From an uncultured Bacteroidales bacterium (lineage in GTDB: Bacteria > Bacteroidota > Bacteroidia > Bacteroidales > Paludibacteraceae), in contig CACZOA010000094.1 of the NCBI GenBank assembly GCA_902782665.1, positions 10,028-74,027 of the forward strand: a DNA stretch of 64,000 bases. Reading direction: 5' to 3'. Under the pieces are notes generated by a model. It was not told the origin of the DNA. It did not search any database and saw only the letters and a program-made list of their open reading frames with translations. A program made the translations under genes and the position numbers. The first letter of the stretch is position 1. Every line of letters starts with the position of its first letter. Shown piece by piece: positions 3,203 to 56,160 of this stretch.

Positions 3203-3654
3203 CAATAAATTTTGGAATGCGGAATGTTACCTCTGCATTTAATTGGGGAATTGTGTCTGATATGGAAATCTATATGTTAAATCGATTGACGAGTTTCGGG
3301 TGTCAAAGGAATCTAAACAAATTTTTCTTATAAATTAAGTTTTAGGTGCAAAAATATTAGAAAATATTGTCTGTAAAACTAAAGTTTTTTAACTTTGTAA
3401 GCAATATGGATTAGGATGATGAATTTAAGCAAAAACATACTGCCTGGAGTAGTTTCAATCTATGATCTAAAGAATTCTTTGGATTGTGATGGATATGACT
3501 CTAATCCTGACTTTATAATATTGAAGATAAAGCCTATCACTGCCTATTTTGACGGTGCGTTGGAGATGTCGGACCTAATAAAGTACGGAAACGGGTGGAT
3601 GCTATAAGTTCAGAGTGGATTAGAAGAAGGTGAAAGAGAAAAAAATAAAGTTAA

Positions 3655-4080
3655 ATGAGAATTCGCTTATTTCTATGTATTTGTCTTTGTGCAACACTTT
3701 CCGCACAAACCGTCCATTTTGTTTATGATAATGCGGGGAATCGTACAGCAAGGTACATTGATATGTCTAATAATCGTGATGGTGGAGTCGTTAATGAAGA
3801 GGATGAATCCAGAAGAGAGATAAATGATTCGTTGGCGTCGAATCATATTCATATTTATCCTAATCCTACCGACGGACACCTTAGCGTTAGAATAGACAGT
3901 TTGAAAAAAGACCAGAGTGCATATGCTCTACTTATAGATACATACGGAAAAAACATTGTTTACCAATACGCAGACAAAAATGATGTCACTATTGATTTTT
4001 CCGATAGAGATCCAGGAATATACATTTTGCGAATAGAGATTGACAATCTCAGCACGGAATGGAAAATAATTAAAAAATAA
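3655..4080 (+). CDS. small secreted protein: signal peptide + single RHS/YD repeat + T9SS type-A C-terminal sorting domain
   Basis: MRIRLFLCICLCATLSAQ signal peptide, then HFVYDNAGNRTARY (YD-repeat consensus). The C-terminal ~75 aa read IYPNPTDGHLSVRI...GIYILRIEIDN...WKIIKK, matching the T9SS CTD motifs. The stop is 4 nt before the Rhs ATG. Confidence 0.8.
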   Translation: MRIRLFLCICLCATLSAQTVHFVYDNAGNRTARYIDMSNNRDGGVVNEEDESRREINDSLASNHIHIYPNPTDGHLSVRIDSLKKDQSAYALLIDTYGKNIVYQYADKNDVTIDFSDRDPGIYILRIEIDNLSTEWKIIKK

Positions 4081-4084
4081 GAAG

Positions 4085-7000
4085 ATGATTCAGAAAATCC
4101 TTTTGTTGGTGTGGTCTTTATTATTTACCTCCGTTTGGTTGTCTGTCGCACAGAATCCGTCAGCTCAACCAGAAGGCGGGGACAGTTCTATTCCCGACTT
4201 TGAGAAAGGAGTTTATATGATGCCAGACGGCACCCCTACAGACGACAAGGCTCAAGGTGTTGTGTTTGGCAAAATAGGAAGTATCCTCAACGTCAGTGCA
4301 AATGGTTCCTTGATGTATCAAATTCCGATAGAAGTGCCATCTGGAGTCAATGGAATGAACCCGAGTATACAGCTTGTCTATAATTCACAGGCAGGCAACG
4401 GAATTGCTGGATACGGATTCAATCTTTCGTGTGTGTCGTCAATATACAGAGCAAGAAAGAATATGTTCTCTGATGGAAAACCGGACGCAATCCATTTGAC
4501 GGACGAGGACAATATCGAGTTGGATGGAGCAAGACTTATATTGACATCCGGAAATAATTTGGCTGACGGCTCGAAGTACCGCACTCAAGAAGAGACGTAC
4601 TGTGACATAACATTTCACAGTGGAGACGACAAGGATGGCTCTTACTTCAGTGTTGTGACAAAAGAGGGTGTCACGATGGTCTATGGAGCGTCGGGCGATG
4701 CAAGAGTAGAATCTCAGACATCCGGTGTGCCGTTGATTTGGCTTTTGACAAAAGTGACGGATCAAAATGGAAACTACATGTCATATGAGTATGGATTGGA
4801 CGATGAGAATGGCGAGTTTTGGCTGTCCAAGATACTCTACACTGGCAACGAGAATGCCAAAGTTGCACCTACTTGTGCCGTGGATTTCACCTACGACTCC
4901 GACCGAAAGGACTCAAGACTGCAATTCACTGCAGGCTCTAAATTGTCATCATCAAAACTGTTGAGAACCGTCGAAGTGAAGGCAAACGGCAAGCTTCTTA
5001 AAACATATACACTGTCTTACTTTTTTGACGGCTTTTACAACAAATTGAAATCCATTACTTTATCCAACGATAATGAGGAGAGTTTAGCTCCAATTGTCCT
5101 AAACTGGAGTAGTCTGGACAAAATCAGCGAATCTGCTCATAAAATTGAGAAGTCCGTCTTCGTCCCATTTGCAGAGGATGATGATTGTTATGATGAATAT
5201 AGTGTTTTGGTGGATGATTTCAATAATGACGGAATTTCCGATTTCATAAAGACTAACTCGGACATTCCAACTGGATTTTCTGCTATTGAAGGTGTCATTG
5301 TTGAATGGAATTTGTATTTATCCAGGAAGACGGAATCAGGTGTCATGTATGAAAAGGCAATGGAAGTGCCAATGGATTATTTTATAGGTGCATTGTTGCT
5401 TCATTCTTTGGACATTAATAAAGACGGAAAGAAAGACCTGATTGAAGTCAAAAGATCTGGTTCGTATTATTGGGTAGATGTCCTTTTGAACGATGGAGAA
5501 GGAACGTTCATCAGACAAAATTTTGAGACGGAGATCGCCCTTACAGACTCTGACCAATCGCAGCTTGAATTCAATGATTTTGACGGTGATGGATTCGTAG
5601 AGATGTTGGTGTTGCACAAAGAAGAGACAGAGATGTACGAAGATGTGGACTTCGCCGACTTGTACAAGATAGACTTTGAAGGCAAACATTTTTCTAAAAT
5701 ATCATCGTTTTCATATAAAAGTCAGTATTTAGCGGTGGACTCCAGATATTCCATAACAGATCTGAATGGAAACGGACTGCCGGAAATTTATAATAGAGCC
5801 TCTCATAAGGCATTTGAGTTCGACTCCAACACAAAAAACTTTGAAAAAATAGACTTCGAGGAGATACCGTTATATTTGGATATGGATGCCGGAGCCGACT
5901 TCGTTGACATCAATGGCGACGGATATACGGACGCTATTGCAGTTTCCCAATATGAAAACAAATGGAAAATCATGCTGTCGACTGGAACTGGGTTTGTGGA
6001 AATACCATGCCCACTCAAAATGGAGTGTGAAAAAACTAGTCCATATGTAGTAGATTGCATTGCTAAAGGTAAACGTTTTTATGCGGACTACAATAATGAC
6101 GGAACTCTCGACATTTTGGAAATCATCAATGACGAACTGACATTCCATTATTTCACAGGCAGTGGATTTGTATCAAAAAAATACTCGCAGTATGAGTTGC
6201 CAGACATTTTGACTAACAAACTGTACTATAACAAACATATACCGTTTTATGACATCACTGGCGACGGTGTGACAGACCTTATGTCGCTCTCAAAAAATGG
6301 GCTTGACGTTCATTTAGTCCACACACCAGAAATTGGCCGATACTTGTCTCAAATCAACGATGGGCTCATGTCGGTCCACACGGTGGATTACAAGACTCTG
6401 TCTGATCCAGTCACCTACCAGTCTGGTCAAAATGAGAGATCTTCCGAGGTGACGCAGCTTTGCATCCCTATCCATGTTGTTAGTCAGGTAACGACAGAAT
6501 CAAGAAATTATGAAAGCACGGAAAAATATTATTACAAAGGTTTGAGATTCCATCAAGAAAAGGGGATATTGGGCTTTGAAGAATTTACGCAAGACAACGA
6601 GACACTCAACAAAAGGAAGACAATCAAGTATGCCTACGATACCATCTTGTTTAATCCTCATCCTGTGGAGGAAACAACTTCCACCTCTGTCACAGACAGA
6701 CCGATAGAGAATGTTGTATTTGAATATAAGACAGAAAATCTAGGAACAAAGTCGGGGAAGCGGTGTTTCAAATACGTGGCAAAGAAGACAGTCACAAACC
6801 GTCTGACAGGCATGACAACTGTTATCGAAGCGTCGGACTATGAGGATGGAAATCCTCAAAAAATAACCACCACGCAAGGAAATGTTGTCGAGGAAAAGAC
6901 CATGACATACGAGAGAAAAGGATCATGGTGCAAAAATAGGGTGAGCTGCTTGACGACCAAAATGATTGCTGACGGCCAGGAACAAGTGCGTAAGGTGTTG

Positions 7001-10000
7001 TCTTTTTATGACGACAGGGGCAACCAGACGAAAGAGATTGCCGATCCGGACGACGAAAATGAATTTGTTACAGAATACAAGAACATCAACCATTTCGGAC
7101 AGGCTCTTTTGGTTGAGCGTTCGGCAAACGGTACAACACGTCGCTCTCAATTTGAATACTGTCCTTCGGGAAGGTTCATGACTGCCAAGACGGATGAAAT
7201 GGGCGACAGATATGAGTATGACTGGGATGAGAACACCGGTTTGTTGAAGAGTAAGACGGACCGTAAAGGCACAGTCCGCTTCTCCTATGACGGATTTGGC
7301 AATCTGACGGAGACTAATTTTGCAGATGGAATAACAGAGACAAGCGTTACAAGATGGGCAACGCAAGAAAACAGTCTGGGAGCAAAATATTACACCTATC
7401 ACGTTAAATCGGGAAGTGCCCCCGTCGTCACGTGGTATGACAATGTTGGCAATGAGGTGCTTAAAGAGACATTCGGACTGAATAACAAAAAAATCAGTGT
7501 CTTTACACAATATAATTCGGATGGAACGAAAAGCAGAGTGTCTGCACCTACATTCTCCTCAGATCCGCAAAGCTGGGCGACTGTATATTCCTACGATGAA
7601 TACGGAAGAGTCACCAGTCTGATAACACCAGCTGGAAAAAGCACCACCAAATATGAGAAAACTTCCACCACGACAGTATCGCCGGAAGGGAGAAAGAAGA
7701 TGAACTATGACGCTTCGGGAAGGGTTGTTAGCATAGAGACAAACGGCAAATCAGTAAGTTACGAGTATTATCCATCAGGAAAGATTAAGACCTCCACTCC
7801 TGAGGGTGGCACCTCTATCAGTGTCGAGTATGACTTGCAGGGAAGACGCACAAGACTGACTGATCCAGACGGTGGAGTACAGGAGACCAAATATAACGGT
7901 TTTGGCGAACTGCTGTGGTCGGGGCAGAGTGTTCATAAAAAAGGAGACACCATAGCCACAGAATACTCATACGCCGAAAACGGCTTGCTGCTTAGCAAGA
8001 CGACAAACGGAAAGACAACCAGCTACGACTATGATAGTCACAACCGCATCGTCGCCATAGAAATTCAGGGTGAGCACAGGCAGTCGTTCTCATACGACGA
8101 GTTTGACCGTGTTGTAAGACAGAAGGAGGAGATAGACGGCAAAATGTTTGAAAGCCGAAAAGAGTACGACGAGTTTGGACGTGTAAGGAAAGAAACATAT
8201 CCGTCTGGATTCTTCACCGTCAACCACTATGACCGCAACGGCATCTTATACGAGGTGACAGACAGTTTGGATCGGTCTGTCTGGAAACTTTTAGAAGAGG
8301 ATGCGTATGGTCAGAGCCTCCGAACGCAAAAGGGAGCCAGGGAGAGCGTTTTTGGATATGACGAGCAAGGGCACACCCTCTCCGTCTATGCAGAAGGTGT
8401 GGTGGACATGCTGTACGCCTATGATTCAAGAGGCAACCTTGAGTCGAGAACAGACAATATGACGAGCCAGCAGGAGATGTTCGGCTACGACGATATGAAC
8501 CGTCTGACAAACTGGGATATCTACCGTGACGGCACCTTGGTGAAGGAAAATAGTCTGACTTTTGACGGGCAGGGTAATATAAAGACGAAGAGCGATCTGG
8601 GCGACTGTGTGCTGAACTACGGAGACAACGGCAGACCTCACGCATTGACATCCATCGAAGGAGCTGTGACAGGCATTCCCGTCACAAAACTGACGCTCGC
8701 CTACACAGATTTTCAAAAGGTTGAGAAAATTGAGGAGGGGAACAAGAGCTATGGCATATTCTATGGTGTCGACGAACATAGACGCAAATCCGTCTATATG
8801 GAAAACGGCAAGACAAAACGTGTCCGCTATTATTTCGGAAATTACGAAGAAGAGACAGATTCCATTGGTAATGTCCGAAAAATTCACTACCTTGCAGGCG
8901 GAAGTCTGTTCATACAGAATTGCGGCAACGATTCCCTGCTGTATGCCTACCACGATTTCCAGGGCTCTTTGATAGCTTTGACGGATGAAGACGGCAATGT
9001 GCTTGAGCGATATGCGTACGACCCTTGGGGAGCACGTCGAAATCCCGAGAAATGGGAAGAGAAGGATCAGCGTACGAAACTTCTGACAGACAGAGGCTAC
9101 ACCGGTCATGAGCATATTGATGCGTTTGCCATCATCAACATGAACGGACGCATCTACGATCCGCTCACAGCCACATTCTTCTCCGTCGACCCATACGTGC
9201 AGTCGCCAGATGATTGGCTCAACTACAACCGCTATGCCTACTGCATGTTCAACCCGTTCCTGTATGTGGATCCGAGCGGCTACACTTGGTTCAGCAAGTT
9301 AGGAAACTGGTTTAGAAACAACTGGGAAAGCATAGTCACGACAGTAGTGACGGTCGCTGTCGGAGTTGCAGTCGGAGCCGCTGTGGTAGCTTCATGTGGA
9401 ACAGCCGCTCCATTGTTGGTGGCGGTATGTGCTGGAACAGCCGCAGGATTTGCAGGAGGAGTGACCAGCGGAATCCTGTCCGGTCAAGATCTAGGCGGCG
9501 TTATGAAGTCTGGACTTATAGGAGCTGGCACCGGGCTGGTTTTCGGAGCGTTGGGAGGAGTCGCATCCACGTTTGCACCGGCAGGAGCATTGTGGGGCAG
9601 TCTTTATGGAGCAGGCACTGGCTCCGTAATTGGCGGTGTGGGCAGTGTCATGACGGGAGGCGACATAAAAGAAGGAATAATCTTTGGTGCCGCGACAGGA
9701 CTTGTCGGAGGAGGCATCCAAGGCTATTGCTCAGCCAAGAGTCAGGGGCTTAATCCATGGACGGGAAAGGAAATAATGCCGAAGATACCGAATTATGATT
9801 TAACACTGGAAACTGGAGATTTTGCTGAGAATGTGACGTTGTATAGAAAAACGTCGGGAAGTGAAGGAAAACCAGGTTATTTGTTCATGACTGACAACTA
9901 TGAGTATGCTCAATCATATGTTCAAAATGGTGGTTCTGTTGAATGTGTGGTTTTACCAAGATCAGCAATCTATGTTATGTCTAATAATGGTTCGGGTGAT

Positions 10001-10114
10001 TTGGTCATTACTCCTAACCCACAAATACACAAAATCAATGGTGTCGAATATAGAGGTTGTGAATATACTTTTTCTCCTAGAGTAAAAGGTCTTATTGTAC
10101 CATTAATGAAGTAG
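4085..10114 (+). CDS. RHS-repeat polymorphic toxin (signal peptide, SpvB-like domain, FG-GAP/VCBS propeller, YD-repeat shell, Rhs core, glycine-zipper pre-toxin, C-terminal toxin tip)
   Basis: N-terminal signal peptide [23 protein letters not shown]. SpvB-like motif [36 protein letters not shown]. Seven DxNxDGxxD FG-GAP-like repeats ([63 protein letters not shown]). More than 15 YD repeats ([24 protein letters not shown], ...). Rhs core ending [14 protein letters not shown]...[11 protein letters not shown]. Confidence 0.95.
   Translation: [2009 protein letters not shown]
9251..9283 (+). other. Rhs core terminal motif [11 protein letters not shown] (PxxxxDPxG-type autoproteolysis / core-tip boundary)
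   Basis: Direct translation. Everything downstream (about 276 aa) is the variable C-terminal region. Confidence 0.75.
9671..9766 (+). repeat. recombination/homology box, copy 0 (encodes [32 protein letters not shown]) inside the full-length rhs gene
   Basis: Near-identical DNA recurs at 10738-10833 and 13709-13805. Fragments recur at 11806-11827 and 12614-12631. Confidence 0.9.
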
Positions 10115-10117
10115 TTT

Positions 10118-10705
10118 ATGGAAAAGACAGAATTAATAATAAATATAAGAAGTTTACTTGATAGTATAGAATCCAGTCTGAAAAAAGAATGTGTCAACAA
10201 GATTCCTGATGTGGAGAAATTCATATGCATAAAAATTGATGATAGTTTTAATCCATTTCTATTTAGAGATTTGATTACTTCTATTCCGCAGGAAACAGAG
10301 GAAATAATGGATTATATAACTTTTTGTAATTATGTTGATTCTGTTCAGAATTTGTTCAGTTGGGTGGATATATGTCCATTTAAAGTAAATGATAGTTATA
10401 TTTTATATATTGTAAAACTTGTTGTTAAATGGAACAAACAACAAGAAATTGGTTTTCATGGATCTTTCCCATCCTTCCGTCACTATCCCATATATGGACA
10501 AAAATATGATTTAAATTATTTTTGGCAAGTAAGTGATAGGGATTATCAAAAGAGGGAAGAAAAATGGTGTAGACGTAGCCGGAGAATTTTAGAAAAATAC
10601 AAGATTCAAAAATGGTTTGCTAAACGAATATATAGGTACTTTGGTAAAAAAATAAACATCTTGGATTTGGATAAAGAAATGAAAAGTATTAATGTCTTTT
10701 CGTGA
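10118..10705 (+). CDS. putative cognate immunity protein of the main Rhs toxin tip
   Basis: 195-aa ORF starting 3 nt after the rhs stop. It is AT-rich, has no signal peptide, and sits where polymorphic-toxin immunity genes sit. Confidence 0.6.
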   Translation: MEKTELIINIRSLLDSIESSLKKECVNKIPDVEKFICIKIDDSFNPFLFRDLITSIPQETEEIMDYITFCNYVDSVQNLFSWVDICPFKVNDSYILYIVKLVVKWNKQQEIGFHGSFPSFRHYPIYGQKYDLNYFWQVSDRDYQKREEKWCRRSRRILEKYKIQKWFAKRIYRYFGKKINILDLDKEMKSINVFS

Positions 10706-10713
10706 TTGATTAG

Positions 10714-11262
10714 ACCCGAAAGATTCGCTATCTTTGTGAAGGAATAATCTTCGGTGCTGCCACCGGACTTGTCGGCGGAGGCATCCAAGGCTACTGTTCA
10801 GCTAAGAGTCAGGGGCTTAATCCGTGGACGGGAGCCAAACTGCCAGAGACGACGGTGAACACTCCGAATGTGCCTTTTGAAGTGCAAGCGGAAATGTCCG
10901 TGGCAGAGAAAGCAACGACTGGAGGAAGACAAGTTCAATGTAGTTCGGTAAATTTTGAGGATGCTCAATTTTCACCTAAACAATTAAATCATAATTATGC
11001 TACACATTTAGAGGGGAAAAGTTTCCTTACCATAGATCATAACATTCTTCTAAATGACTTAAAAATAGGTAATTATGAAATTATTGGTATTAATGGACGA
11101 AATATGCCTATTGTTCAATTCCAGTATGACAATATAGGAATTGTTATAGGAAGAGATGGAAGTATTATAGGAAATACAAACCAAGCAACAATTCACATTA
11201 ATGCCAACAGACAAATACATATTGTTCCAAGAAGTAATGGAAATAGTGCTGTAACACCTTAA
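10714..11262 (+). CDS. orphan Rhs C-terminal toxin cassette 1 (no Rhs shell, no credible own start; begins with the homology box)
   Basis: The frame opens right after a TAG at 10711-10713. It encodes [32 protein letters not shown], then [31 protein letters not shown], then a unique ~110-aa tip. The ORF-track start at 10855 is an internal GTG. Confidence 0.8.
   Translation, partial: [182 protein letters not shown]
10738..10833 (+). repeat. recombination/homology box, copy 1
   Basis: ggaataatcttcggtgctgccaccggacttgtcggcggaggcatccaaggctactgttcagctaagagtcaggggcttaatccgtggacggga aligns with 9671-9766 with few mismatches. Confidence 0.9.
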
Positions 11263-11274
11263 AATTTTATAAAT

Positions 11275-11796
11275 ATGATATGGATAGACAAAATAGATGG
11301 AGTCCAAAGGCACGTAGATGACGAGGAACTTAATCAAGCCTTGAAAGATTTAGATACAATTAAACGGAAATTTTTAGAGTATGATTATTTGTACGCAGGT
11401 AATTTGAATTTTGAAATGTTTAAATTGCCGTATTGGGAATATTTGTTTCTCTGTGGTAATATAGATGTCCACAAAAAAAATATCATTGAAGAGGGCGCTC
11501 TACTTTACATATATGTGTTGTATAAAGAGATCTTTGAATCTGAGGGATATTGTTTTTTGTATAAAAACAAAATTTTGTTTGAAATACTAAAGGTAAGCAT
11601 AAATAAATATACTCCAGATAGTATAAAAAAAGAACTGATGGTGTCGAAAATAAAATACGAACAGCAACATTATGAAAACGAAAGGTTAAGTGATGATTTT
11701 TCTATAGATGAACTATCTGAAAATGAAAAAAATATACTTGACAATTTGATTTCAAATGACGACTGGGTTTATTCTAAATTCGTTTTAGGTATTTAG
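11275..11796 (+). CDS. putative immunity protein for orphan tip 1
   Basis: 173-aa AT-rich ORF starting 12 nt after the tip stop. Cytoplasmic, with no recognisable family. Confidence 0.5.
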   Translation: MIWIDKIDGVQRHVDDEELNQALKDLDTIKRKFLEYDYLYAGNLNFEMFKLPYWEYLFLCGNIDVHKKNIIEEGALLYIYVLYKEIFESEGYCFLYKNKILFEILKVSINKYTPDSIKKELMVSKIKYEQQHYENERLSDDFSIDELSENEKNILDNLISNDDWVYSKFVLGI

Positions 11797-11805
11797 TCTT
11801 ATATT

Positions 11806-11827
11806 ATCCAAGGCGACTGCTCAGCTT
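11806..11827 (+). repeat. scar of the homology box (atccaaggcgactgctcagct)
   Basis: Matches catccaaggctactgttcagct from the boxes. It lies directly upstream of the ORF at 11845 with no toxin sequence in between. Confidence 0.6.
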
Positions 11828-11844
11828 CTTAAAGTATACTAAGT

Positions 11845-12267
11845 ATGAGTCAAATAAACTTTTATGACAACAAAAGACATTTAATAATGTCTTTTTCTAA
11901 TTTTTCTATCCTTGAACAGGATATAGGACTGATAAGGTTTCATATCGAAATGTCATTTGGAATTTTCAATGTTTCGACTGAAACAGAAATATACATGCCA
12001 TATCTGCAGTGTTTTTCTGATGAGTTAAAAAATCTATATGACCATTTTACAGAAAAACAAAAAGCTGTATTTAGTCCAATAGAAAGAGATGTCGACATAT
12101 TATTTGAAACAGGAGGGAATATGGGATATATTTCAGCTTTAATAAATTTATATTACGATTCAATCTGCGAGAATAACGCTACTTTAACATGTAAATATAC
12201 TATCGACCAATCATTTTTGCCAGAATTGATAGAAGAGATAGAGACAACATTGGAGGAGCTTAGGTAG
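11845..12267 (+). CDS. immunity-like protein with no adjacent toxin tip
   Basis: 140-aa acidic cytoplasmic ORF within the toxin/immunity array, preceded only by a box scar. Confidence 0.45.
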   Translation: MSQINFYDNKRHLIMSFSNFSILEQDIGLIRFHIEMSFGIFNVSTETEIYMPYLQCFSDELKNLYDHFTEKQKAVFSPIERDVDILFETGGNMGYISALINLYYDSICENNATLTCKYTIDQSFLPELIEEIETTLEELR

Positions 12268-12299
12268 AATACTTATAAAACAATAAATTTTTTATAGAA

Positions 12300-12557
12300 A
12301 TGAATAGACATAATTGCAGAGTTTGTGGGTATTATATTGATGATTTACCATGGGGTAAAGATGGCAATTGTCCTACTTATGAAATTTGTCCTTGTTGTGG
12401 GGTCGAATTTGGAAATGAAGATTGTACAAAGGAATCTACAAAACAATATAGAGAAAAATGGATAAATGATGGAACAAAATGGTTTGAACCAGAAGAAAAG
12501 CCCCAAAACTGGAATAAGGAGGAACAATTTATAAATATTCCACAAGAATTTTTATAA
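12300..12557 (+). CDS. CPCC-type cysteine-rich (zinc-ribbon) small protein
   Basis: CRVCGY...(25 aa)...ICPCCGVEFGNED gives two CxxC pairs with the CPCC signature. Proteins of this type are recurrent in polymorphic-toxin immunity loci. Confidence 0.6.
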   Translation: MNRHNCRVCGYYIDDLPWGKDGNCPTYEICPCCGVEFGNEDCTKESTKQYREKWINDGTKWFEPEEKPQNWNKEEQFINIPQEFL

Positions 12558-12559
12558 AT

Positions 12560-12748
12560 CAAACAAATCGCATCTACGAGTTTTCTTGTGAGGTGACGAG
12601 AGAACTCAGCAATCAGACTTGTCGGCGAGAGTATGTTCATCCAATTGAAGGTCAACGCTTTCCTGGACCGCACAGAGTTATAATAGGTTCAGAGGGTGAA
12701 ATTTATTATACACCCGATCATTATAAAACTTTCTTAAAAATCAAATAG
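12560..12748 (+). pseudogene. 5'-truncated barnase/RNase Sa (N1/T1)-family RNase toxin tip
   Basis: The frame ending at TAG 12746-12748 reads ...SNQTCRREYVHPIEGQRFPGPHRVIIGSEGEIYYTPDHYKTFLKIK. Compare the barnase C-terminus ...SDRILYSSDWLIYKTTDHYQTFTKIR. It has no start and is preceded by an 18-nt homology-box fragment (12614-12631). Confidence 0.75.
12614..12631 (+). repeat. scar of the homology box (cagacttgtcggcgagag) fused to the truncated RNase tip
   Basis: Matches cggacttgtcggcggagg (the GLVGGG-coding part of the box). Confidence 0.55.
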
Positions 12749-12750
12749 AA

Positions 12751-13179
12751 ATGTATTATTATACTGATATTGAAGAAATAAATATTGATGCAAACTGTTA
12801 TTTGGCTCGAATAGAATTAAACCCTGAAGAAACTGAATCTTCTATGTTTAGTAAATATAATAATGTTTTGCATTTCCCAGATTACTTTGGCTTTAATTGG
12901 GATGCATTTGATGAGTGTATCAGTGATTTAAGTTGGATAGATCAACCTATCATTTGTATTGTACATTCACCTTTAAATGTCTCAGACAAAGAATTCTTGT
13001 ATAGATATTTGAAGTGTATAGATGACGTGGAGAAAGATTGGAGTATATTCATAAATTCAATTGACGATAATCCCCAAAACGCATGGAAACGTCAGTATGT
13101 TAAGTATGTTAGATTCTATTTCCATGAATGTGACAGAGAAAGGATTTGTTCGACATTGTCAAATGGCTATACGAGATAA
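12751..13179 (+). CDS. barstar-family RNase inhibitor (immunity protein)
   Basis: LHFPDYFGFNWDAFDECISDLSWIDQPIICIVH parallels barstar [30 protein letters not shown]. The ATG lies 2 nt after the RNase remnant stop. Confidence 0.8.
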   Translation: MYYYTDIEEINIDANCYLARIELNPEETESSMFSKYNNVLHFPDYFGFNWDAFDECISDLSWIDQPIICIVHSPLNVSDKEFLYRYLKCIDDVEKDWSIFINSIDDNPQNAWKRQYVKYVRFYFHECDRERICSTLSNGYTR

Positions 13180-13223
13180 CGATATCCTACGAATCATACT
13201 ATTTTGAATAGATATAAAGGAAA

Positions 13224-13622
13224 ATGATTGGAAAAATTGATTTGTTGGATAGAGAAAAAAGTGGATTTGTAGAAAAAGAAATTTTTCAAAATATCCCTTT
13301 GGTAAAAGAAAATGGAAATAGTTGCATTATACAAATTATTTCAGAAAATTCCTTAAAAAAATTCTATCTTTTTAAAAACGGAATTTATTCTTTTTTTCTA
13401 ACTTACGAATTGTTCTATTTTTTAGTAATTATAATGAAAAATAAAAAATTTGCACTGAAACAATATGACGATAATATTTTTGCCATCGATTTAACTGAAG
13501 ATGAATTGGCAGATGTTTACGAAACAGTATCCGACCTGATACCAGGAAGTTTTGACTATCACAATAAACCAACATTAATAACTAATAAGTTAGAACTTTT
13601 GGTAGATATTTTTATGCTGTAA
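13224..13622 (+). CDS. hypothetical immunity-like protein
   Basis: 132-aa very AT-rich ORF inside the array, with no recognisable motif. Confidence 0.35.
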   Translation: MIGKIDLLDREKSGFVEKEIFQNIPLVKENGNSCIIQIISENSLKKFYLFKNGIYSFFLTYELFYFLVIIMKNKKFALKQYDDNIFAIDLTEDELADVYETVSDLIPGSFDYHNKPTLITNKLELLVDIFML

Positions 13623-13648
13623 AAACCTCTTTTTTTCTGGCTTTATAA

Positions 13649-14209
13649 AACCTCTACGGCACAGCACTCGGCGGAGTTAGTGCGACAATAAACGGTGGCG
13701 ACACCTGCGAGGAAATAATCTTCGGTGCTGCGACCGGACTTGTCGGCGGAGGCTTCCAAGGCTACTGTTCAGCCAAGAATCAGGGGCTTAATCCGTGGAC
13801 GGGAGCCAAACTGCCAGAGACGACGGTGAACACTCCGAATGTGCCTTTTGAAGCACAGACGGAGATGTCCGTGGCTGAGAAAGCAACGACGGGAGGAGAA
13901 AGACAATTAGATTTAACAAGTAAAGAATTAAATATAGAAAATCCATCTACTCCTGTTGGAAGACGTGGGTCTGAAATGAATTGTGAGAAATCGAATTCGT
14001 TCGTAAAAATAGGAACACGTACATATACAGGACATGCTTTAGATCGAATGCAGGGTCGTGGATTTGTTCCTTCTGTTGTGGAGGATGCAATAGGAAATCC
14101 ATTGAAAACGTATTTAGGGAGTAGACCCAATACTACAGTTTATGAAAATATTAACATTAAAGTTGTAATCAATCAGAATGGTGATGTTATAACGGTAATA
14201 CCTCGATAA
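13649..14209 (+). CDS. orphan Rhs C-terminal toxin cassette 2: homology box + DUF4258-like (RelE/BECR-fold, predicted RNase) tip
   Basis: The frame opens after TAA 13646-13648. It encodes ...[79 protein letters not shown]. The tip then reads [26 protein letters not shown]...[14 protein letters not shown], resembling the DUF4258 pattern HAxxRMxxRGI...V...I...vITv. Confidence 0.7.
   Translation, partial: [186 protein letters not shown]
13709..13805 (+). repeat. recombination/homology box, copy 2
   Basis: gaggaaataatcttcggtgctgcgaccggacttgtcggcggaggcttccaaggctactgttcagccaagaatcaggggcttaatccgtggacggga. Weaker homology to the main gene continues upstream to about 13661. Confidence 0.9.
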
Positions 14210-14219
14210 AATTTGATAT

Positions 14220-14633
14220 ATGTTACATGTAGATATAAATGCTGGCAATATAGTTTTTTCTATTAGTCCAAGATACATATCAAAAGAAGAGTCTTTTGAT
14301 TTGGTATTGGTGAATTCAGATGTGAGATTGTCGGCCAAAGGATTGACTTTGAACGAAGAGATAGAATTGTTTGATTATGATTTTGTCTCTTTGCGAAATA
14401 AGTTGGAATTGTTAGTGAGTAATAAAGAAGACGTTGTGTCTTGGAATACGGAAGAAGAAACAATATTTTTTTCTATAACGAAAAAAGAACAATGTTTTAT
14501 TTGGAATCTAAGGTATATCATTGGAGGAAAAGAAGATGATTTCTTGAATTTTAATTTTGTGTTATCCGAAACGGATATGAACTATATAATTAGTGAAATT
14601 TATTCGATAATAGATTGGGTCAATATGAGTTAA
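14220..14633 (+). CDS. putative immunity protein for orphan tip 2
   Basis: 137-aa AT-rich ORF starting 10 nt after the tip stop. Confidence 0.5.
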   Translation: MLHVDINAGNIVFSISPRYISKEESFDLVLVNSDVRLSAKGLTLNEEIELFDYDFVSLRNKLELLVSNKEDVVSWNTEEETIFFSITKKEQCFIWNLRYIIGGKEDDFLNFNFVLSETDMNYIISEIYSIIDWVNMS

Positions 14634-14654
14634 TTCTATTTTATAACTTAGGTA

Positions 14655-14710
14655 GGATACTTCACCGTCAACCACTACAATCCGCTCACAGCCTACTGCA
14701 TGTTCATTCT
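14655..14710 (+). pseudogene. collapsed remnant of an Rhs core
   Basis: ggatacttcaccgtcaaccactacaa matches 8207-8232. tccgctcacagcc matches about 9160-9172. ctactgcatgttca matches 9239-9252. Three distant rhs segments are juxtaposed within 55 nt. Confidence 0.6.
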
Positions 14711-14792
14711 GATAGAATTCTCACCTCTTTTTCTCATTAAAAGGCGTAGTTTCTCTGTGGACTTAGTGCCTCTGTTGTTTTATAAATTCAGT

Positions 14793-14851
14793 GTGCTCGC
14801 CTACGGCTCGCACTAAAGAAGGGTTAGGGCGTTCCGCCCTTAACAATCCTC
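14793..14851 (+). repeat. REP-like intergenic element, copy A (gtgctcgcc..ggctcgcac..gggttAGGGCGttcCGCCCTtaacaatcctc)
   Basis: Contains a perfect AGGGCG/CGCCCT hairpin. Related copies occur at 53889-53954, 56072-56131 (inverted) and 56161-56221. Confidence 0.8.
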
Positions 14852-14935
14852 ATTTATCTATTATTATAATATTCTTCTATCTCGTCGAATTGACGTTATT
14901 TTATGGTGAATATTAAGTTTACTAATAGAAAATCA

Positions 14936-14967
14936 GCGTCGACAGAATACTGTCAACGCCGTTTTTT
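14936..14967 (+). terminator. rho-independent terminator closing the rhs array
   Basis: gcgtcgacag-aatac-tgtcaacgc hairpin followed by gtttttt. Confidence 0.6.
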
Positions 14968-14999
14968 AGATGTTAGTGTGAGATAAATTTATATGATAT

Positions 15000-16622
<1,623 letters not shown>

Positions 16623-16642
16623 CTATGATATTAAAAACATTA

Positions 16643-16650
16643 CAAAATTA
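16643..16650 (-). promoter_or_regulatory. -7 box TAATTTTG (minus strand) upstream of pyrG
   Basis: The plus strand reads caaaatta, 27 nt upstream of the pyrG ATG. Confidence 0.45.
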
Positions 16651-16820
16651 CAAAATCTGATGAATGTGATATACGTAATTGGAAAGATGCTTTGTAGGAT
16701 TTTGAAAATATTGAAATTTGTAAGTAAAAACGATATTGTTGTTTCTGTTTTTAAGTAATTTTGATTTTATACTTACGTTTTGTTATTTATTTGTGTTTCT
16801 TGTATGACTTTTAAACAAAA

Positions 16821-16850
16821 AAATCCCCGTTTCTAAAAACGGGGATTTTT
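16821..16850 (-). terminator. rho-independent terminator of the coiled-coil protein gene
   Basis: aaatccccgt/acggggattt stem flanked by A and T runs. Confidence 0.7.
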
Positions 16851-16874
16851 ATACCTATATATGGAATGTTAATT

Positions 16875-19016
16875 TTAATGTTCCAAAGTTTCAACTCTAG
16901 AATCCAAATCTTGAACTTTATTTTCCAAAGCCTCGATTCTAGGGCTTAAACCAGTAGTGTTGTTGATGGCATCATCCAAAGAACCAACAGAAGTTTCCAA
17001 AGTTCCGACTTTAGTTGTTAAACCAGTAGTGTTGTTGTTGATGGCATCATCCAAAGAAGCAACGGAAGTTTCCAAAGTTCCGACTTTAGCAGCTAAACCA
17101 GTAGTGTTGTTGTTGATGGCGTCATCCAAAGAACCAACGGAAGTTTCCAAAGTTCCGACTTTAGTAGCTAAACCGTTAGTGTTGTTGTTGATGGCATCAT
17201 CCAAAGAAGCAACGGAAGTTTCCAATGTTCCGACTTTAGTAGACAAACCAGTAACCGTAGTGTTGATTCCAGACAATGCCTCTGTAATCTTTTGGCTGAT
17301 AAGAGCTGATAGCTTATCTTCACTTAGGTTATTCATTTTCTCTACCAACTCTCTGTATTTAGTGTCAGCTTCAGTGCTGTCTGCTTTATGCTTTGCCTTT
17401 ACCTTGTCAATCTCTTTAGCTAAAGAATCATTTTTTGCGTTGATTGTTTTAGCCCAGCTGACAAGTTGATTCATCATACTGTTGATGTTCGAAATGTTTG
17501 TCGAGTGTGTCGCCAATTTAGATGAGTTTTCATTTACTGTTGCTTGTATTCCATCAATCTCATTTTCAAGAGAGAATACCTCTCCGTCGACATACTCTGT
17601 TATATTAATGTTAAGTGTATCCAATTTGCCATAGATCACTTTTGCAAGGCTGTCAATCTTATTCTTCATGTTCTTTGACGATGCAGTAGCGTTGTTTGCC
17701 ACTGTTTGTGTAAGATTGTTGATTGCTTTTGTATGGCTCTTGCTGATACTGTCAACTTTTGTGCTCAAAGCAGTTGTTTTGCTGTCAAATTTCGCTTCCA
17801 ACACAGAGTCTTTTTCTGTCAAGCCTTTTATTTTGCTTTCGTTAGCTGATATTCTGTTGTTCAAAGTAAGGTCGTCTGCTTGAGCCTTTCTTTCTGAAGC
17901 GAGTATTTTGTCATCTACCTTGCCTAGCTCAGTCTGGATAGCTTCAATCTTTTTGTTAAGCTCTTTCTTGTTGTCAGAGACAGTAGAAGAAAGTGTGCTG
18001 ACTGTGTTTGTCAATTCACTGGCTCTTAAATCTGTGCTGTTGATTGATTGAGAAAGAGTACTTACTGACCTGTCAAGAGCTCGCAATTCGTCATTAGTCG
18101 CATACACTGACATTCCTGATTTATCCATGAAATATTGCAATGTATCTTTCTTTGCGTATAGCTTGTTGACCTCTTTCAAGTTCTTGTAGTTTGATTCTGC
18201 CAACGCCTTGTTCGCATCTACAGTCTGGCTCAACTCTGCTATTGTCTCACCTGTTGTCTTAGACAAGGTGTTTACACTTGCTTTTGTTGCGTAAGAAGAC
18301 AATGAGTCTTTTGTTGCAAAAGCAGAGATTTCTGATTTTGTCGCATATTTAGCGGAGTTTGACTGTAATTCAGTGATCCAGTAGTTGTTGGCGTCGACCA
18401 CCGATTTCAAACTGTCGATTCTGTAGTTGCTTGAGCGAAGACCTCTGTTGTGCAAATCTAGGACATCATCCTTTGTAGCGTAATCTGTAAGGATCTTTCT
18501 TGTGCTGTCAGCTGAGTATGCCGCAACGTCTTCGATTTTTGCATATTGCGACATATCTGGCTTGTCTTTCAAGTCAGCCCAATATCCAGAAAAACTGTCT
18601 GCTGATTTTAGAGAGTATAGTGCGTATGGCACGCTGCTTACCGAAGTTGTTGCAACAGCGGCCTCAGTCAACTCTGGGCTTGTGGATGTTGATGTTCTGA
18701 TGACATACTTGTTTGCCGACCAGTTGATGCTGCTGAATGGTCCGCTTGCAGCGCTACCTTCTCCAATTTTGATTGCGAACGAACCGTAGTTGTCGGTTTT
18801 CGCATTGTGCATTTCTGAATACACAACCTCGTATGAGCCAACGTTGTCTATCAGGATTTCAACTTTGACATAAACCGTATGGTTGGCTACAGGAGCTCCA
18901 GAAGTGGTACGTACGACACTTTGATAGTTGAAACTTTGTGGAGTGGCTGCGTTGGCGTTGATTGCCATGAAAGGCAGCGTCGCTAATAATATTTTATTAA
19001 GTATATTTTTATTCAT
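16875..19016 (-). CDS. secreted coiled-coil fibre-like protein with C-terminal 25-aa tandem repeats
   Basis: Signal peptide MNKNILNKILLATLPFMAINANA, a ~130-aa globular head, and about 450 aa of Ser/Thr/Asn/Lys-rich heptad-like sequence. It ends with 4 copies of TKVGTLETSV(A/G)SLDDAINNNT(T/N)GL(A/T) and then PRIEALENKVQDLDSRVETLEH. Confidence 0.7.
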   Translation of the reverse strand: MNKNILNKILLATLPFMAINANAATPQSFNYQSVVRTTSGAPVANHTVYVKVEILIDNVGSYEVVYSEMHNAKTDNYGSFAIKIGEGSAASGPFSSINWSANKYVIRTSTSTSPELTEAAVATTSVSSVPYALYSLKSADSFSGYWADLKDKPDMSQYAKIEDVAAYSADSTRKILTDYATKDDVLDLHNRGLRSSNYRIDSLKSVVDANNYWITELQSNSAKYATKSEISAFATKDSLSSYATKASVNTLSKTTGETIAELSQTVDANKALAESNYKNLKEVNKLYAKKDTLQYFMDKSGMSVYATNDELRALDRSVSTLSQSINSTDLRASELTNTVSTLSSTVSDNKKELNKKIEAIQTELGKVDDKILASERKAQADDLTLNNRISANESKIKGLTEKDSVLEAKFDSKTTALSTKVDSISKSHTKAINNLTQTVANNATASSKNMKNKIDSLAKVIYGKLDTLNINITEYVDGEVFSLENEIDGIQATVNENSSKLATHSTNISNINSMMNQLVSWAKTINAKNDSLAKEIDKVKAKHKADSTEADTKYRELVEKMNNLSEDKLSALISQKITEALSGINTTVTGLSTKVGTLETSVASLDDAINNNTNGLATKVGTLETSVGSLDDAINNNTTGLAAKVGTLETSVASLDDAINNNTTGLTTKVGTLETSVGSLDDAINNTTGLSPRIEALENKVQDLDSRVETLEH
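16944..17270 (-). repeat. 75-nt tandem coding repeats (about 4.3 copies, >90% identical)
   Basis: atggc(a/g)tcatccaaagaa recurs at 16966, 17041, 17116 and 17191, an exact 75-nt period. Confidence 0.9.
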
Positions 19017-39842: not shown

Positions 39843-42800
39843 TTATTGTGCAATAACCATGATTTTTTCAGTTTTTTCTGCAAAATCTGATTTTTCAGTA
39901 GCTATGCGAATATACAGTAAGTATAGTCCTGAGGCAATTTTGCCGTTCTCATTCAAGTCCCACTCGATGTTCCATGTTCCGTCTGTCGGCTTGTCTTTAA
40001 ACTCTTTTCTTAGAATCTCTCTGCCAGACACCTCGGTCAATGAACATTCTACAGTCTGAACTTCATCAGGTCTGTTTGTCTTTATGTAAGCTGTAAATTT
40101 GTCCTTGGCTGGGTTAGGGTAGACTGTTAGTGTCTCTATCTCTGGCGCCAAGCTTTCGTTTACATAAATTCGGATAGTTGATTCGGATGAGTTGCTTTGC
40201 AAATCCCATGCTTTGATCTTGATTGTGTGCCAGCCTTCACTCAATGCCTCTTCTATGTGGTATTCAACTCTTCCTTCTGTACAACTTGCTGTATTATATT
40301 TGAAATATGAATTTAAAGAGATGACGTTCTTTGTGTTGTCGTCGATTGTCAATGTGATGTTATGACCGATACTGCTGCCTGTCGCATTTATACCGCTTGC
40401 ATCCGACAAATCCACATAAATCATAGGGTTAGGATTCACTTTGTATCCATCCTTGTAATTGTCTCCGTTTGTTGTCACGACAAGATTTGGTCCGACGCTG
40501 TCTGGTGTCACATCTGGTGCACTGCCTCCGATGTACAAGGTTTCGTCTGCTCCCATAGCATCCCAACCATTTGACTCGTCGTATGCATACATAGACAATC
40601 TGCCGAAATCGATATTATAGTTGATGTCTTTAGGTATGATCATCTGTAGTTCAAATTCTCCATTAGTTACGATAGAAGAACCTGTATACAATGTGCTCTG
40701 TCTGTCGTAATAAGTGTAAGGGTCGATGCCGTTTTTATTTCCTTTCGTGAACGCTTTTACCTCTTTGTCTTTTAGTGTGGCGTTTACTATTCCGTTGAAT
40801 TGTTTCAACGTGTTGCCTGACTCGTCTTCTACGTGACAATAAATCTTAACTTTGGATAGCGCTTTCAGAGTGTCTGTTTTTGAGACACTTCCGTCTGAAT
40901 TCAAAGTTACAATTGAGTCGACCGCTATATTCAATTCAGGAACTTTTAATTTTAGACCTGGATCTCCCAACAAAATATAAACCATTTTGTTCGAGTCCTG
41001 ACCTCTTGCTGTTTTTGCCGCTCTGTATATTTTACCTAAGCGGTACTCGTTCTCTGGATTAAAAGCTTGTTTTAAGAAATCCTTGTCTAACGATAGGTTT
41101 GGTGATGCGTAGGCTGTGCGTACGGCTCCAATAGAAGCAATCGCTCCTCCGTTTGGATTAAGCATGATTTCCTCTCCGTAACTTGTTCTGAAATCATCAT
41201 ACTGAGACAGATTACAGCTTCCTGCAAACCACACAGGATATATTTTGTTGTATATCGTCTGTACTTGTGATATTGAGTAAGAATGCTCAGCACTTATGGC
41301 GTTATACGAACTGTGTCCTAAGTAGTTGAAAATCAAAGAGCCTTCTGTGAATTTCTTTGTTATGGCTGCAGTCACTTCTGGGTATCTGCGTGATCCTCCA
41401 CTCATGTCACAAGTGAAGTTGTCCCAATAGAAACGAGTTATATTCATTCTTGGTTCAACTGTTTCTATCGTTGATATTGCCTCCTCTTGATGTGATAAAA
41501 AAGAGTGGTATCCTGAAGATGAGCTTTGTTCTTCATTGTCATCTGCCAAAGCAAGAACTTTTGTTCTCCATTCGCCTGGCTCCAATGCATAGTATTGTTT
41601 TACTTTGTTGACAAGATTTTCTGCTTGCTCTGCTTTTATGACAGGGAATCTTCCTACTCCAATGTTTATTCGTTTATTGGTGTATAGGTTGTTGTAACCT
41701 ATAGATCCGTCTTCAACATAGCCGAAATAGTCGTCGCAAGAGTAGCTGGATGTTTCGTTCAATGATTTCACGGATTGGTATGTCAACATTTTGTTGTTGT
41801 CATTCTTCTTTAGCTTTCCTCTGTTGTCGTATGTTCCATCTCCCATCAACAGCAGATATTGAGGATAAATTCCATATTCAGATTCCGACGCTTTGTCCCA
41901 TAGCATTTTCATGAACGCTCTGATGGCTGTAGGATCTGGAGTTCCGCTCGAGAATTCATTGAACACTTGCTCTGCAGTGACAACCGCTACATTCATTCCA
42001 TCCTCTTTTTGATGGAACTCTGCTAATTCTTTGGCTTGGTCGATGAATTCAGGGTTGGTCACTACTACGTATTCAATATTGTTAAATGCGTGCAGATTCT
42101 GGTTGTCTACATTTCCGACAACTTCTGGAGTAGGGAATCCTCCTCCCCAGTTGACCAAGATGTACCTTCCGACTGTAGGTCTTGTTTTGACTGTGAATAT
42201 CAAACTGTCTTTGCTTAGTCTTGTTGGCACTCTTTTGACATCACCGATCTCTGATACGTCCCAAACCTGGATGTTAGAATTTGAATTCAATGCGGCGTAT
42301 GTGATGTTGTATTCTGTCGACGATGGAGTGACTGGTATCATCTGGTAGCTTACATTGCCTTTCAGATTGCATTTTGCTGCAGCGATTATATAGTCAATGT
42401 ATCCGGCTCCGGTAGTTGATCCTGTAGTGTAGTCGTATGTGGCCGATATGGAATTGGATGATGTCTGTGTGACGTCTGCTTCCATTATCTTCTCGTATCC
42501 AAGATCATATTTGGCAGCTTTGTCGAATGAAACTGATTTGTCTGTTAAATCGGTCTTCAGATTGAATTCTCCTATAGTTGACGATGCTGACAGCACATTG
42601 CTGTAGATTCTTCCAGTTTCTCCCGCTATAAGATTGGTGAATGAGAAAGAGAATGTCTTGCTGTCGCCATTGCTGAATTTGTTGCCATACCAGTTTCTGC
42701 CGGTTTTGGCTATGTTGATGTCATCAAATTTTTGCCATTTGATGGCTGTATATGTAGTCTCTTTTATCTCTTCTTCTGTCAATTCCTCAGCGAACTCAAT

Positions 42801-55907: not shown

Positions 55908-56071
55908 AAATGAATTATATCTTGTAGTTTTATTTGATTCCTAAACATTGGAAGATGTAAAACATCATTCAATGCAAACGTTACAAAAATAACAAAAATT
56001 AATTATAAATCGGAAATGAGGTATGTGAAATTAAATTATAGGTTAAAGATGGATTGTTCTGCATAAAAAAT

Positions 56072-56131
56072 GAGGATTGTTAAGGGCGGAACGCCCTAAC
56101 TCACTCTCATCCGCGAGCCCAGAGGACGAGC
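56072..56131 (-). repeat. REP-like intergenic element, copy C (inverted)
   Basis: gaggattgttaagggcggaacgccctaac...gacgagc is the reverse complement of the family consensus. Confidence 0.8.
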
Positions 56132-56160
56132 GGTAAAAATGCGTTTTTTGTAAATTATAA

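Follow-up and report, generated by a model that had tools for sequence, protein, structure and literature searches.

A Bacteroidota Rhs toxin gene followed by an array of truncated tip and immunity cassettes

The Rhs gene and the array behind it

The subject of this analysis is a toxin locus in a 64,000-nucleotide (nt) stretch of DNA from an uncultured Bacteroidales bacterium of the family Paludibacteraceae (assembly GCA_902782665.1, contig CACZOA010000094.1, positions 10,028 to 74,027 of the forward strand); the whole stretch is referred to below as the window. The locus, all of whose features lie on the plus strand, consists of a full-length Rhs polymorphic toxin gene at 4085–10114 (hereafter the main gene), which encodes a protein of 2009 amino acids (aa), and an array of 5′-truncated tip and immunity cassettes that spans 4.6 kb behind it. 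The parts of the Rhs protein follow one another in the order leader, SpvB domain, FG-GAP propeller, RHS/YD shell, Rhs core, glycine-zipper pre-toxin module and a variable C-terminal domain, which we call tip A. Pfam matches were to RHS_repeat (PF05593, E=2.4e-39), SpvB (E=1.7e-18) and FG-GAP_3 (E=6.5e-16), and NCBIfam matches to TIGR01643 (E=6.3e-29) and to Rhs_assc_core (TIGR03696, E=8.5e-13, aa 1645–1732); the hydrophobic N-terminus was recognised by eye in the translation. Judged by these matches, the gene belongs to the RHS family and to its TcdB/TcaC type (SpvB, propeller and RHS), the type to which Zhang et al. (PMC3482391) assigned the signal-peptide/SpvB/propeller/RHS architecture.

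The Rhs core ends, as does the TIGR03696 match, at DPSGY (9269–9283, read from the translation). The 11-residue core motif (aa 1723–1733) fits the PxxxxDPxG[LWY] type, and DPSGY is presumed to be an autoproteolysis site on the strength of what is known of the family. Between DPSGY and the motif NPWTG lies the constant pre-toxin module of 161 aa (9284–9766). It is 24% Gly, has 17 GxxxG motifs and 9 charged residues, and shows hydrophobic peaks at aa 1755–1790 and 1814–1828. In its predicted structure there are five helices, with the box described below covered by the final one, though at a pLDDT of 53 this is a hint only. Tip A (9767–10114, 115 aa) follows NPWTG. It had no sequence match in Pfam, NCBIfam or the PDB, and a Foldseek search of the PDB with its AlphaFold model (pLDDT 64) returned nothing below E=0.17; a guess that it is an ADP-ribosyltransferase, based on an 'LYRG...LFMTDN...EY' pattern, found no support and was dropped. 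The presumed immunity gene of tip A, immA (10118–10705, 195 aa), starts 3 nt after the stop codon of the main gene and has no family match.

Self-comparison of window positions 4000–17000, together with direct reading of the frames, confirmed a three-copy direct repeat at 9668–9859, 10735–10926 and 13706–13897, of which the downstream two copies are 93% identical over 192 nt. The in-frame part that all three copies share is a 96-nt box of 32 codons that closes the constant region at NPWTG. A preliminary description of this DNA, made from its letters and open reading frames (ORFs), had reported an intact box in the main gene and in two orphan cassettes, and this is the distribution that we found: copy 1 makes up the final 32 constant codons of the main gene (9671–9766), and copies 2 and 3 stand in orphan 1 (10738–10833) and orphan 2 (13709–13804). 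The boxes of the main gene and orphan 1 differ at 9 of 96 nt (90.6% identity), all of them synonymous, and their peptides are identical; those of the main gene and orphan 2 differ at 11 of 96 nt (88.5% identity) and at 3 aa. Pairwise differences within the window range from 6 to 11 nt. Both orphan boxes are followed by a 93-nt linker (10834–10926 and 13805–13897), encoding AKLPETTVNTPNVPFE(V/A)Q(A/T)EMSVAEKATTGG, that the main gene lacks. The preliminary description had put this linker at about 95 nt, and it had also remarked, correctly, on the base composition of the boxes, whose G+C content is 0.49–0.57 as against 0.21–0.35 for the tips and immunity genes.

Orphan 1 (10714–11262) is composed of the box, the linker and a tip (10927–11262) that matched the MafB2 toxin 8hhj_B in a sequence search of the PDB (E=7e-6); 12 nt after its stop codon begins its presumed immunity gene, immB (11275–11796, 173 aa). 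Orphan 2 (13649–14209) starts with about 20 further codons of a diverged pre-toxin (13649–13708) upstream of the box, and continues through the linker into tip E (13898–14209), for which we obtained a weak DUF4258 match (E=0.013) and no PDB sequence match. It is followed by immE (14220–14633, 137 aa), the presumed immunity gene of tip E, which is weakly WapI-like (Pfam WapI E=9.4e-4, below the cut-off). The immunity-type genes of the array start 2–12 nt after the tips and have kept their full length. Judged from sequence, such adjacent genes would act as toxin–immunity pairs.

Between the orphans lie two fragments of the box, both of them noticed previously. Scar 1 (11806–11826) is a 21-nt remnant of the box middle, encoding IQGDCSA, with 2 mismatches, and the box fragment of scar 2 (12609–12627) comprises 19 nt with 3 mismatches; in 100 dinucleotide-preserving shuffles of the window, the mean number of matches was 0.00 for both patterns. 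Behind scar 1 come an orphan immunity-like gene of 140 aa that stands without a toxin (11845–12267; WapI-like, Pfam WapI E=1.3e-5, below the curated cut-off) and an ORF for a Cys-rich protein of 85 aa without a family match (12300–12557). In scar 2 as a whole (12609–12748), the box fragment is joined to the final ~40 codons of a toxin of the barnase type (12628–12748), which match the C-terminal end of the Pfam Ribonuclease profile (E=8.6e-5), and next to it stands an intact Barstar-family immunity gene of 142 aa (12751–13179; Pfam Barstar E=1.1e-15). A 132-aa ORF (13224–13622) then leads to orphan 2. At the end of the array, a sixth relic (14655–14706) is made up of three Rhs-core pieces fused in frame, GYFTVNHY, NPLTA and YCMF, whose sources are at 8207–8229, 9154–9172 and 9236–9251, and is then cut off. 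An 11-nt match to the Rhs core at 12569–12579 was considered as a further relic and set aside as too weak (E=0.026). The scan of the array found no terminator-like sites on the plus strand, and no known RNA family was found in or near it; in the window as a whole, the RNA-family scan returned only two tRNAs and, far from the array, one match to the Acido-Lenti-1 RNA.

Just downstream of the array, at 14778–14855, we observed a dispersed intergenic repeat with two hairpin-like stretches, GTGCTCGCCTACGGCTCGCAC and AGGGCGTTCCGCCCT. It recurs at 53919–53958, 56068–56100 (minus strand) and 56146–56222, and in the opposite orientation in the flanks of relatives.

The locus in related genomes

Relatives, designated by L and P numbers, were collected by a protein search with the pre-toxin segment and a DNA search with the box. 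The protein search returned Paludibacteraceae metagenome proteins, many of them short ORFs that hold 18–99% of the query at 88–99% identity and then run into different toxins. The box itself was present in 5 of 185,579 species-representative genomes, all of them metagenome-assembled genomes (MAGs) of Bacteroidales or Paludibacteraceae with up to 6 copies per contig, and in 12 metagenome stretches. The window and 23 related loci together provided 48 box copies, some from redundant assemblies, and in all of these the homology breaks off directly behind NPWTG or behind the linker. Beyond that point stand at least 12 distinct tips, including barnase, GIY-YIG, colicin D, Tox-REase-7, DUF4258 and MafB2-like ones, several with a Barstar, Imm or WapI-like gene downstream; the last 95–142 aa and the adjacent immunity gene are the only part that varies. 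In the upstream direction, the homology ends after 56, 63, 80, 91–96, 240, 393, 461, 530 or at least 1627 nt, which makes the box the least that is kept from the end of a longer constant segment. The earlier idea that the box is a single crossover site had to be abandoned, given that orphans elsewhere hold 240–530 nt of the constant segment at 94–97% identity, including the DPSGY core motif.

We compared the same site, between the rhomboid gene and pyrG, across the relatives (a permease gene also flanks the locus). Six alternatives were found at the main position between the same flanks, with the tips joined after NPWTG. The main gene is full-length in the window, where it carries tip A, in L009 (UBA3743), where a GIY-YIG tip is followed by five orphans, and in L023, where the linker and an 'EIRTEIKNATY' tip are attached. 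In L007 it is decapitated, about 960 nt of the 3′ end being left, and ends in an intact barnase tip followed by barstar; L039 has the same breakpoint, with tip E and its 137-aa gene. L002 has an 861-nt stub without a tip, which ends in 'NPWTEAKLPETTV' and runs into the flank, where it reads into the intergenic repeat mentioned above ('...CVLAYGSH*'). A further full-length homologue, P0051 (2024 aa, 92.7% identical over 1900 aa, examined as a protein), has the linker and a barnase tip. L002, L007 and L039 all lack the first ~4.7 kb of the Rhs gene together with the small accessory gene that precedes it in the window (see below); their shared breakpoint, at 9856 in L002, 9399 in L007 and 1169 in L039, corresponds to window position ~8817–8824, and the remaining ORF starts with MIALTDEDG. 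The occurrence of different tips behind the same breakpoint would mean either that tips changed after decapitation or that the decapitated allele spread by recombination. The nearest relative by pyrG, L013 (95.8%), has a different, shorter array.

Tips A and E were each found at main and orphan positions. Only three homologues of tip A were found, and the tip occurs in orphan form in L009, L014 and L028. In L009, the segment equivalent to window positions 9676–10742 (tip A and its immunity gene) is an orphan at 7199–8265 with 97.6% identity, and ahead of it stand the same two elements as ahead of orphan 2 in the window, the 132-aa gene and the diverged allele of the upstream sequence. Conversely, tip E, an orphan in the window, occupies the decapitated main position in L039. 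To relate tips to the constant sequence, 36 nt at the 5′ edge of the box were scored as main-type (M) or diverged (O) and set against the tip. All four combinations exist: M-A (window), O-A (L009 and L014), O-E (window) and M-E (L039). Exchange must therefore have occurred between the two markers, within the box or, for tip E, within the box and linker, in agreement with the earlier proposal that tips can be swapped at the box. The O-type fragment, which the 132-aa ORF precedes in all relatives, stands before four different tips in different genomes, and exchange has therefore occurred at orphan positions as well. At the evolutionary scale, then, genome comparison shows tips placed on the main gene by recombination, the replacement falling at the junction after NPWTG. 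Of the two outcomes that the preliminary description had named as refuting its proposal, a failed self-alignment and a lack of tip replacement in related strains, neither occurred.

Many parts of the array could be traced in the same genomes. The upstream homology of the orphan 1 tip is 240 nt in L032 (124–367) and 96 nt in the window (10714–10740); the two differ by exactly 144 nt, in frame, and have the identical left boundary (TRKI[RH]YLC), which suggests a deletion between repeated glycine-zipper units. The 173-aa immunity gene is also kept in L032, and in L009 at 96.9% identity, there without a toxin; in both genomes scar 1 likewise lies behind it. L009 has, in addition, a 96.7% identical copy of the 140-aa WapI-like gene. 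A 98.8% identical copy of the 85-aa Cys-rich ORF in L012 again stands before a 5′-truncated box, and the 5′ truncation of that box is the same as that of scar 2. The intact version of the barnase tip of scar 2 is P0007 in L007, and the Barstar gene has the same length as the copy beside that intact tip. The 137-aa gene also stands behind tip E in L039, and it has been conserved in L007, L009, L012 and L023. Lastly, the relic at 14655–14706 belongs to a longer type of orphan, of which it forms the 5′ end; in L009 the sequence runs on into the 283-aa P0004, and the same composite occurs in L007, L012, L023 and L031.

Movement of the tips and competing explanations

We think it highly probable that the locus is an Rhs system of a main gene and orphan cassettes, in which tips are moved by homologous recombination in a shared constant segment and the array doubles as an immunity store. 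The constant part extends past the Rhs core (DPSGY) through the 161-aa module to NPWTG, and each cassette retains the 3′ end of this region, the 96-nt box being the minimum kept. Homologous recombination in the shared segment could then carry a tip with its immunity gene onto a full-length gene or between cassette positions, the partner being the main gene, another cassette, or incoming DNA of a related strain. Illegitimate deletions would have taken toxins and spared immunity genes, leaving the array as an immunity store. Two toxins have indeed been deleted in the array next to intact immunity genes, and wherever an immunity-type gene has a counterpart in a relative, the two are of the same length; the array therefore lost toxins and not immunity genes. 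The loss of toxins, along with the presence of arrays at decapitated loci, points to selection for immunity. Recombination of cassettes onto a constant 5′ gene body is an established process (PMC3482391, PMC3967940).

The divergence of the boxes bears on their origin. Between the main gene and orphan 1 (the 9 differences mentioned above), the synonymous divergence (pS) is 0.375 and the nonsynonymous divergence (pN) 0; between the main gene and orphan 2, the values are 0.34 and 0.04. The resulting pN/pS ratios of 0–0.12 indicate purifying selection on the orphan boxes, which were therefore presumably once translated as part of full-length genes. The orphan boxes stem from Rhs alleles that lie as far apart as the alleles of different species do. 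The preliminary description had attributed the orphans to a different parental junction, and this attribution has gained ground both from the existence of linker-bearing full-length genes (L023 and P0051) and from the pS of 0.34–0.375, as compared with 0.11 for the Rhs body between genomes.

Between genomes, the locus and its surroundings have diverged to very different extents. The Rhs gene and cassettes (3263–14706 compared with L002, L007 and L009) are 94–97.6% identical, with a pS of 0.04–0.11, and the flanking genes are 82–91% identical, with a pS of 0.38–0.51 for pyrG. In the comparison of the window with L009, pS and pN are 0.109 and 0.016 for the Rhs body, 0.054 and 0.007 for tip A, 0.039 and 0.004 for immA, and 0.51 and 0.013 for pyrG. 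Because the island is far less diverged than its flanks, it must have been exchanged between lineages, across species-level boundaries, and its spread is much faster than the divergence of the flanks.

Several observations weigh against tip movement by recombination as a process within this genome. At synonymous sites, the boxes of main gene and orphans have diverged further (0.34–0.375) than the Rhs body has between genomes (0.11), and conversion between main gene and orphans has not taken place recently in this genome. The longest identical runs between the main-gene box and the orphan boxes are 20 and 15 nt. Recombination of the RecA type usually needs roughly 20–30 nt of identity, and the runs in the window are at or below this length. 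At the Salmonella locus where switching was seen, the shared sequence is far longer, 522 bp at 95% (PMC3967940). With a box identity of ~90% and identical runs of 15–20 nt, swapping inside this genome is probably rare or inefficient, and exchange with incoming DNA that offers longer homology may be the commoner route.

These same observations lend weight to the idea that the locus is a fossil record only, in which tips arrive by horizontal transfer and displace older ones downstream, the older cassettes last because their immunity genes give protection from neighbours, and the box is a passive leftover. Such an account overlaps with the recombination system proposed above and differs from it on present-day function only; we regard it as possible, if doubtful. 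Two cassettes that lost their toxins and hold full-length immunity genes, arrays kept in relatives whose main gene is decapitated (L002, L007 and L039), and the transfer between lineages to which the low divergence of the island testifies would all be expected of it, and a model of sequential displacement has been put forward in the literature (PMC5361080, PMC3482391). However, the frames of orphans 1 and 2 are uninterrupted over 182 and 186 codons in AT-rich DNA. Moreover, tips have moved both ways between main and orphan positions, and four of them are found at one internal orphan position, behind the 132-aa gene and O-type fragment, a pattern not expected of simple displacement at the main gene.

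Alternatively, each orphan might be a small toxin gene in its own right, expressed by itself and having an N-terminal membrane or export segment in common with the others. The purifying selection on the box peptide could be taken in this sense, gene callers annotate such fragments as proteins of 128–303 aa, and there is one strict Bacteroidetes-type promoter motif (TTTG-N-TAnnTTTG) upstream of orphan 2; it is the single such site on the plus strand of the array, and lies at 13449–13482 within the 132-aa gene, ~170 nt before the open frame of orphan 2 (a scan for sigma-70 promoters is not informative for Bacteroidota). We nevertheless find independent expression quite improbable. No ATG, GTG or TTG occurs ahead of the box in the orphan frames, which are open from 10714 and 13649, and the first candidate start in both is the same GTG within the linker. 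Furthermore, the orphans have no signal peptide, their 5′ ends are arbitrary cuts within the module helices (at 56, 63, 80, 91, 240, 393 and 530 nt), and the same tips occur fused to full-length proteins of 2000 aa. The orphans are presumably silent.

That the box is the site of a site-specific recombinase, comparable to an integron attC site or to the recombinase-associated orphan-immunity islands of Bacteroidales, is very improbable. A short, discrete repeat with sharp 3′ ends would suit a recombinase, and a 172-aa Phage_int_SAM_4 gene is found ~1.4 kb upstream of the relic locus in L001–L004; yet in the window, L007 and L009 the array has no recombinase gene next to it. The box belongs to the coding region of the main gene and varies mainly at synonymous positions, the length of homology upstream of it takes a continuous range of values from 56 to more than 1600 nt, and the box forms no significant hairpin (z-scores of DNA folding −0.77, −0.60 and +0.47). 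An assembly chimera, in which contigs of co-existing strains were misjoined at the box, is very improbable as well. All relatives found are metagenome-assembled, as the window may be too, and repeats of 96–192 nt are a known assembly hazard; but the copies differ by 6–11 of 96 nt and are hence resolvable, and the individual junctions recur in independent assemblies, that of immA, orphan 1 and immB in L032, that of the 132-aa gene with the O-type fragment and box in L007, L009, L012 and L013, that of immE with the composite relic in L009, L012 and L023, and that of the M-type pre-toxin with tip A in P0012.

The pre-toxin module, the accessory gene and relation to known systems

The module that ends in the box is not confined to the close relatives. 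A HMMER search with it against 1.84 billion cluster representatives found 122 proteins at E≤1e-3, 34 of them at E≤1e-10. Many of the matches sit in proteins of 2000–2400 aa, ~150–300 residues from the C-terminus, and they end at query positions 165–168, which is the WTG. Distant members retain the pattern '...GG.xG[YF]..AK..G.N[PV]W[TS]G' and then continue into other toxins, some after a different linker, 'TAKPSVIADN'. In near and distant homologues alike, W-T-G (or W-S-G or I-T-G) closes the module directly N-terminal to diverse toxins. No Pfam family covering the module appeared in our scans. The preliminary description had placed the crossover in a pre-toxin TG segment and not at the Rhs core motif; its second half holds, the junction being 161 aa past DPSGY, and its naming of the segment does not, for PF14449 (PT-TG) matched neither the window segment (at E≤10) nor any of 35 homologues (at E≤0.1) or 8 distant ones (at E≤1), with the proviso that the HMMER filters drop most matches above about E=0.1 and a very weak similarity could escape them.

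PT-TG, defined in Gram-positive toxins (Zhang et al. 2011, PMC3113570; surveyed in PMC13483458), resembles the module in its position N-terminal to many unrelated toxins, its conserved TG end and its predicted helical fold; it differs in that PF14449 matches none of the 43 homologues scanned nor the window protein, and in that the module here is ~160 aa long, hydrophobic and rich in glycine zippers. Thus, the module is a pre-toxin domain that occurs throughout the family and has no annotation; it would work like PT-VENN or PT-TG, membership in neither being shown. Its composition, together with the precedent of Tde1, a type VI secretion system (T6SS) DNase whose glycine-zipper segment was shown to be needed for entry into the target cell (PMC10240207), suggests a role in membrane insertion or translocation. 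In both cases, the glycine zipper adjoins the toxin domain. Tde1, however, is a small effector with a single N-terminal motif, whereas here 17 GxxxG motifs are contained in a 161-aa module inside an Rhs protein, and the function is presumptive.

Upstream of the main gene, an accessory ORF of 141 aa (3655–4080) ends 5 nt before the Rhs start codon. It has an N-terminal hydrophobic leader, a YD-like motif (VHFVYDNAGNRTARY) and a C-terminal sorting domain of the type IX secretion system (T9SS; Pfam Por_Secre_tail E=1.5e-10), and we found 66 homologues of comparable size. Two distant ones (32–35% identity; from the L033–L038 set) each lie 12–24 nt upstream of an SpvB/FG-GAP/RHS toxin gene of 2059–2301 aa, and one of these pairs adjoins T6SS genes (TssC, TssF and gp25-like). 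The accessory ORF and the Rhs gene look like a conserved two-gene module, which would be a lead on the route of these toxins to the cell surface. The main Rhs protein contains no PAAR or VgrG domain by Pfam scan, and no T6SS gene was found among the 16 ORFs scanned in the window outside the array. The window also encodes, on the minus strand, two paralogues of ~1140 aa with a peptidase C25 and a T9SS sorting domain (39843–43253 and 44037–47510; gingipain- or PorU-like); because of this T9SS-sorted pair, we take it that the organism has a T9SS.

One could go further and envision that the NPWTG module represents an undescribed pre-toxin family of Bacteroidota SpvB/FG-GAP/RHS proteins that carries toxins across the target membrane and is processed at or near NPWTG, and that with the T9SS-tailed small protein it defines an uncharacterised delivery route. 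We consider this unlikely. If it were true, the box with its optional 31-aa linker would be a standard joint for cassette exchange across species.

Two features elsewhere in the window may be mentioned. On the minus strand, the ORF at 16875–19016 encodes a coiled-coil-like protein of 713 aa and contains 4.1 tandem copies of a 75-nt unit (16947–17253, 91% matches), whose number appears to vary among relatives. The Acido-Lenti-1 RNA match in Rfam (60180–60225; 57 bits against a gathering score of 37) abuts the start codon of a minus-strand gene for an ABC-transport auxiliary protein.

The locus offers a natural example of polymorphic toxin diversification, in which one narrow clade of Paludibacteraceae has full-length, decapitated and stub versions of an Rhs gene at one site, with at least six tips attached there behind an identical run of five residues, and in which cassettes are far more alike between genomes than the adjoining housekeeping genes. 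In SpvB-type Rhs toxins of Bacteroidota, the exchangeable unit starts ~160 residues past the Rhs core, after a glycine-zipper module absent from domain libraries, which bears on the annotation of toxin domains and on the design of chimeric toxins. That arrays outlast a working main gene supports the notion that the storage of immunity is part of the reason why such loci are kept.

Among known systems, the arrays of CdiA-CT/CdiI modules are similar in arrangement: a short peptide motif (VENN there, NPWTG here) bounds the constant and variable parts, and orphans retain sequence upstream of it. The motif and domain differ, and CdiA is a filament of two-partner secretion, as opposed to the Rhs shell here. 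The displacement arrays of the Vibrio cholerae T6SS (PMC5361080) and the orphan immunity genes of Bacteroidales (PMC12247911) likewise form strain-variable strings of immunity genes behind an effector gene, with toxin remnants beside intact immunity genes, and such arrays also outlast the working effector gene. Unlike them, the present array has kept two complete tips, its tips return to the main position, and it has no dedicated recombinase. In the MafB-CT/MafI system of Neisseria (PMC4287609), too, silent C-terminal cassettes with immunity genes lie behind a full-length toxin gene; that system has another N-terminal delivery domain and comes from another phylum, and the sequence likeness is limited to one toxin domain, that of the orphan 1 tip.

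A close parallel in organisation is provided by the rhs main/rhs-CT orphan locus of Salmonella Typhimurium (Koskiniemi et al. 2014, PMC3967940) and other enterobacterial Rhs orphans, where a full-length gene is followed by 5′-truncated modules of tip and immunity gene that share the constant sequence of the main gene, and where recombination gives the main gene a new tip. There the shared sequence, 522 bp at 95%, lies in the Rhs core, whereas here it is 96 nt long with an identity of about 90%, and as long as 530 nt in relatives; the DPxG motif is separated from the junction by 161 aa, which form the glycine-zipper module. Enterobacterial Rhs proteins are linked to PAAR and VgrG, and that of the window is of the SpvB/FG-GAP type from Bacteroidota; switching in Salmonella is experimental, and here it is known from genome comparison alone. 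The locus thus extends the known principle of Rhs main genes and orphan cassettes to a little-studied group and leaves the current understanding of that principle in place.

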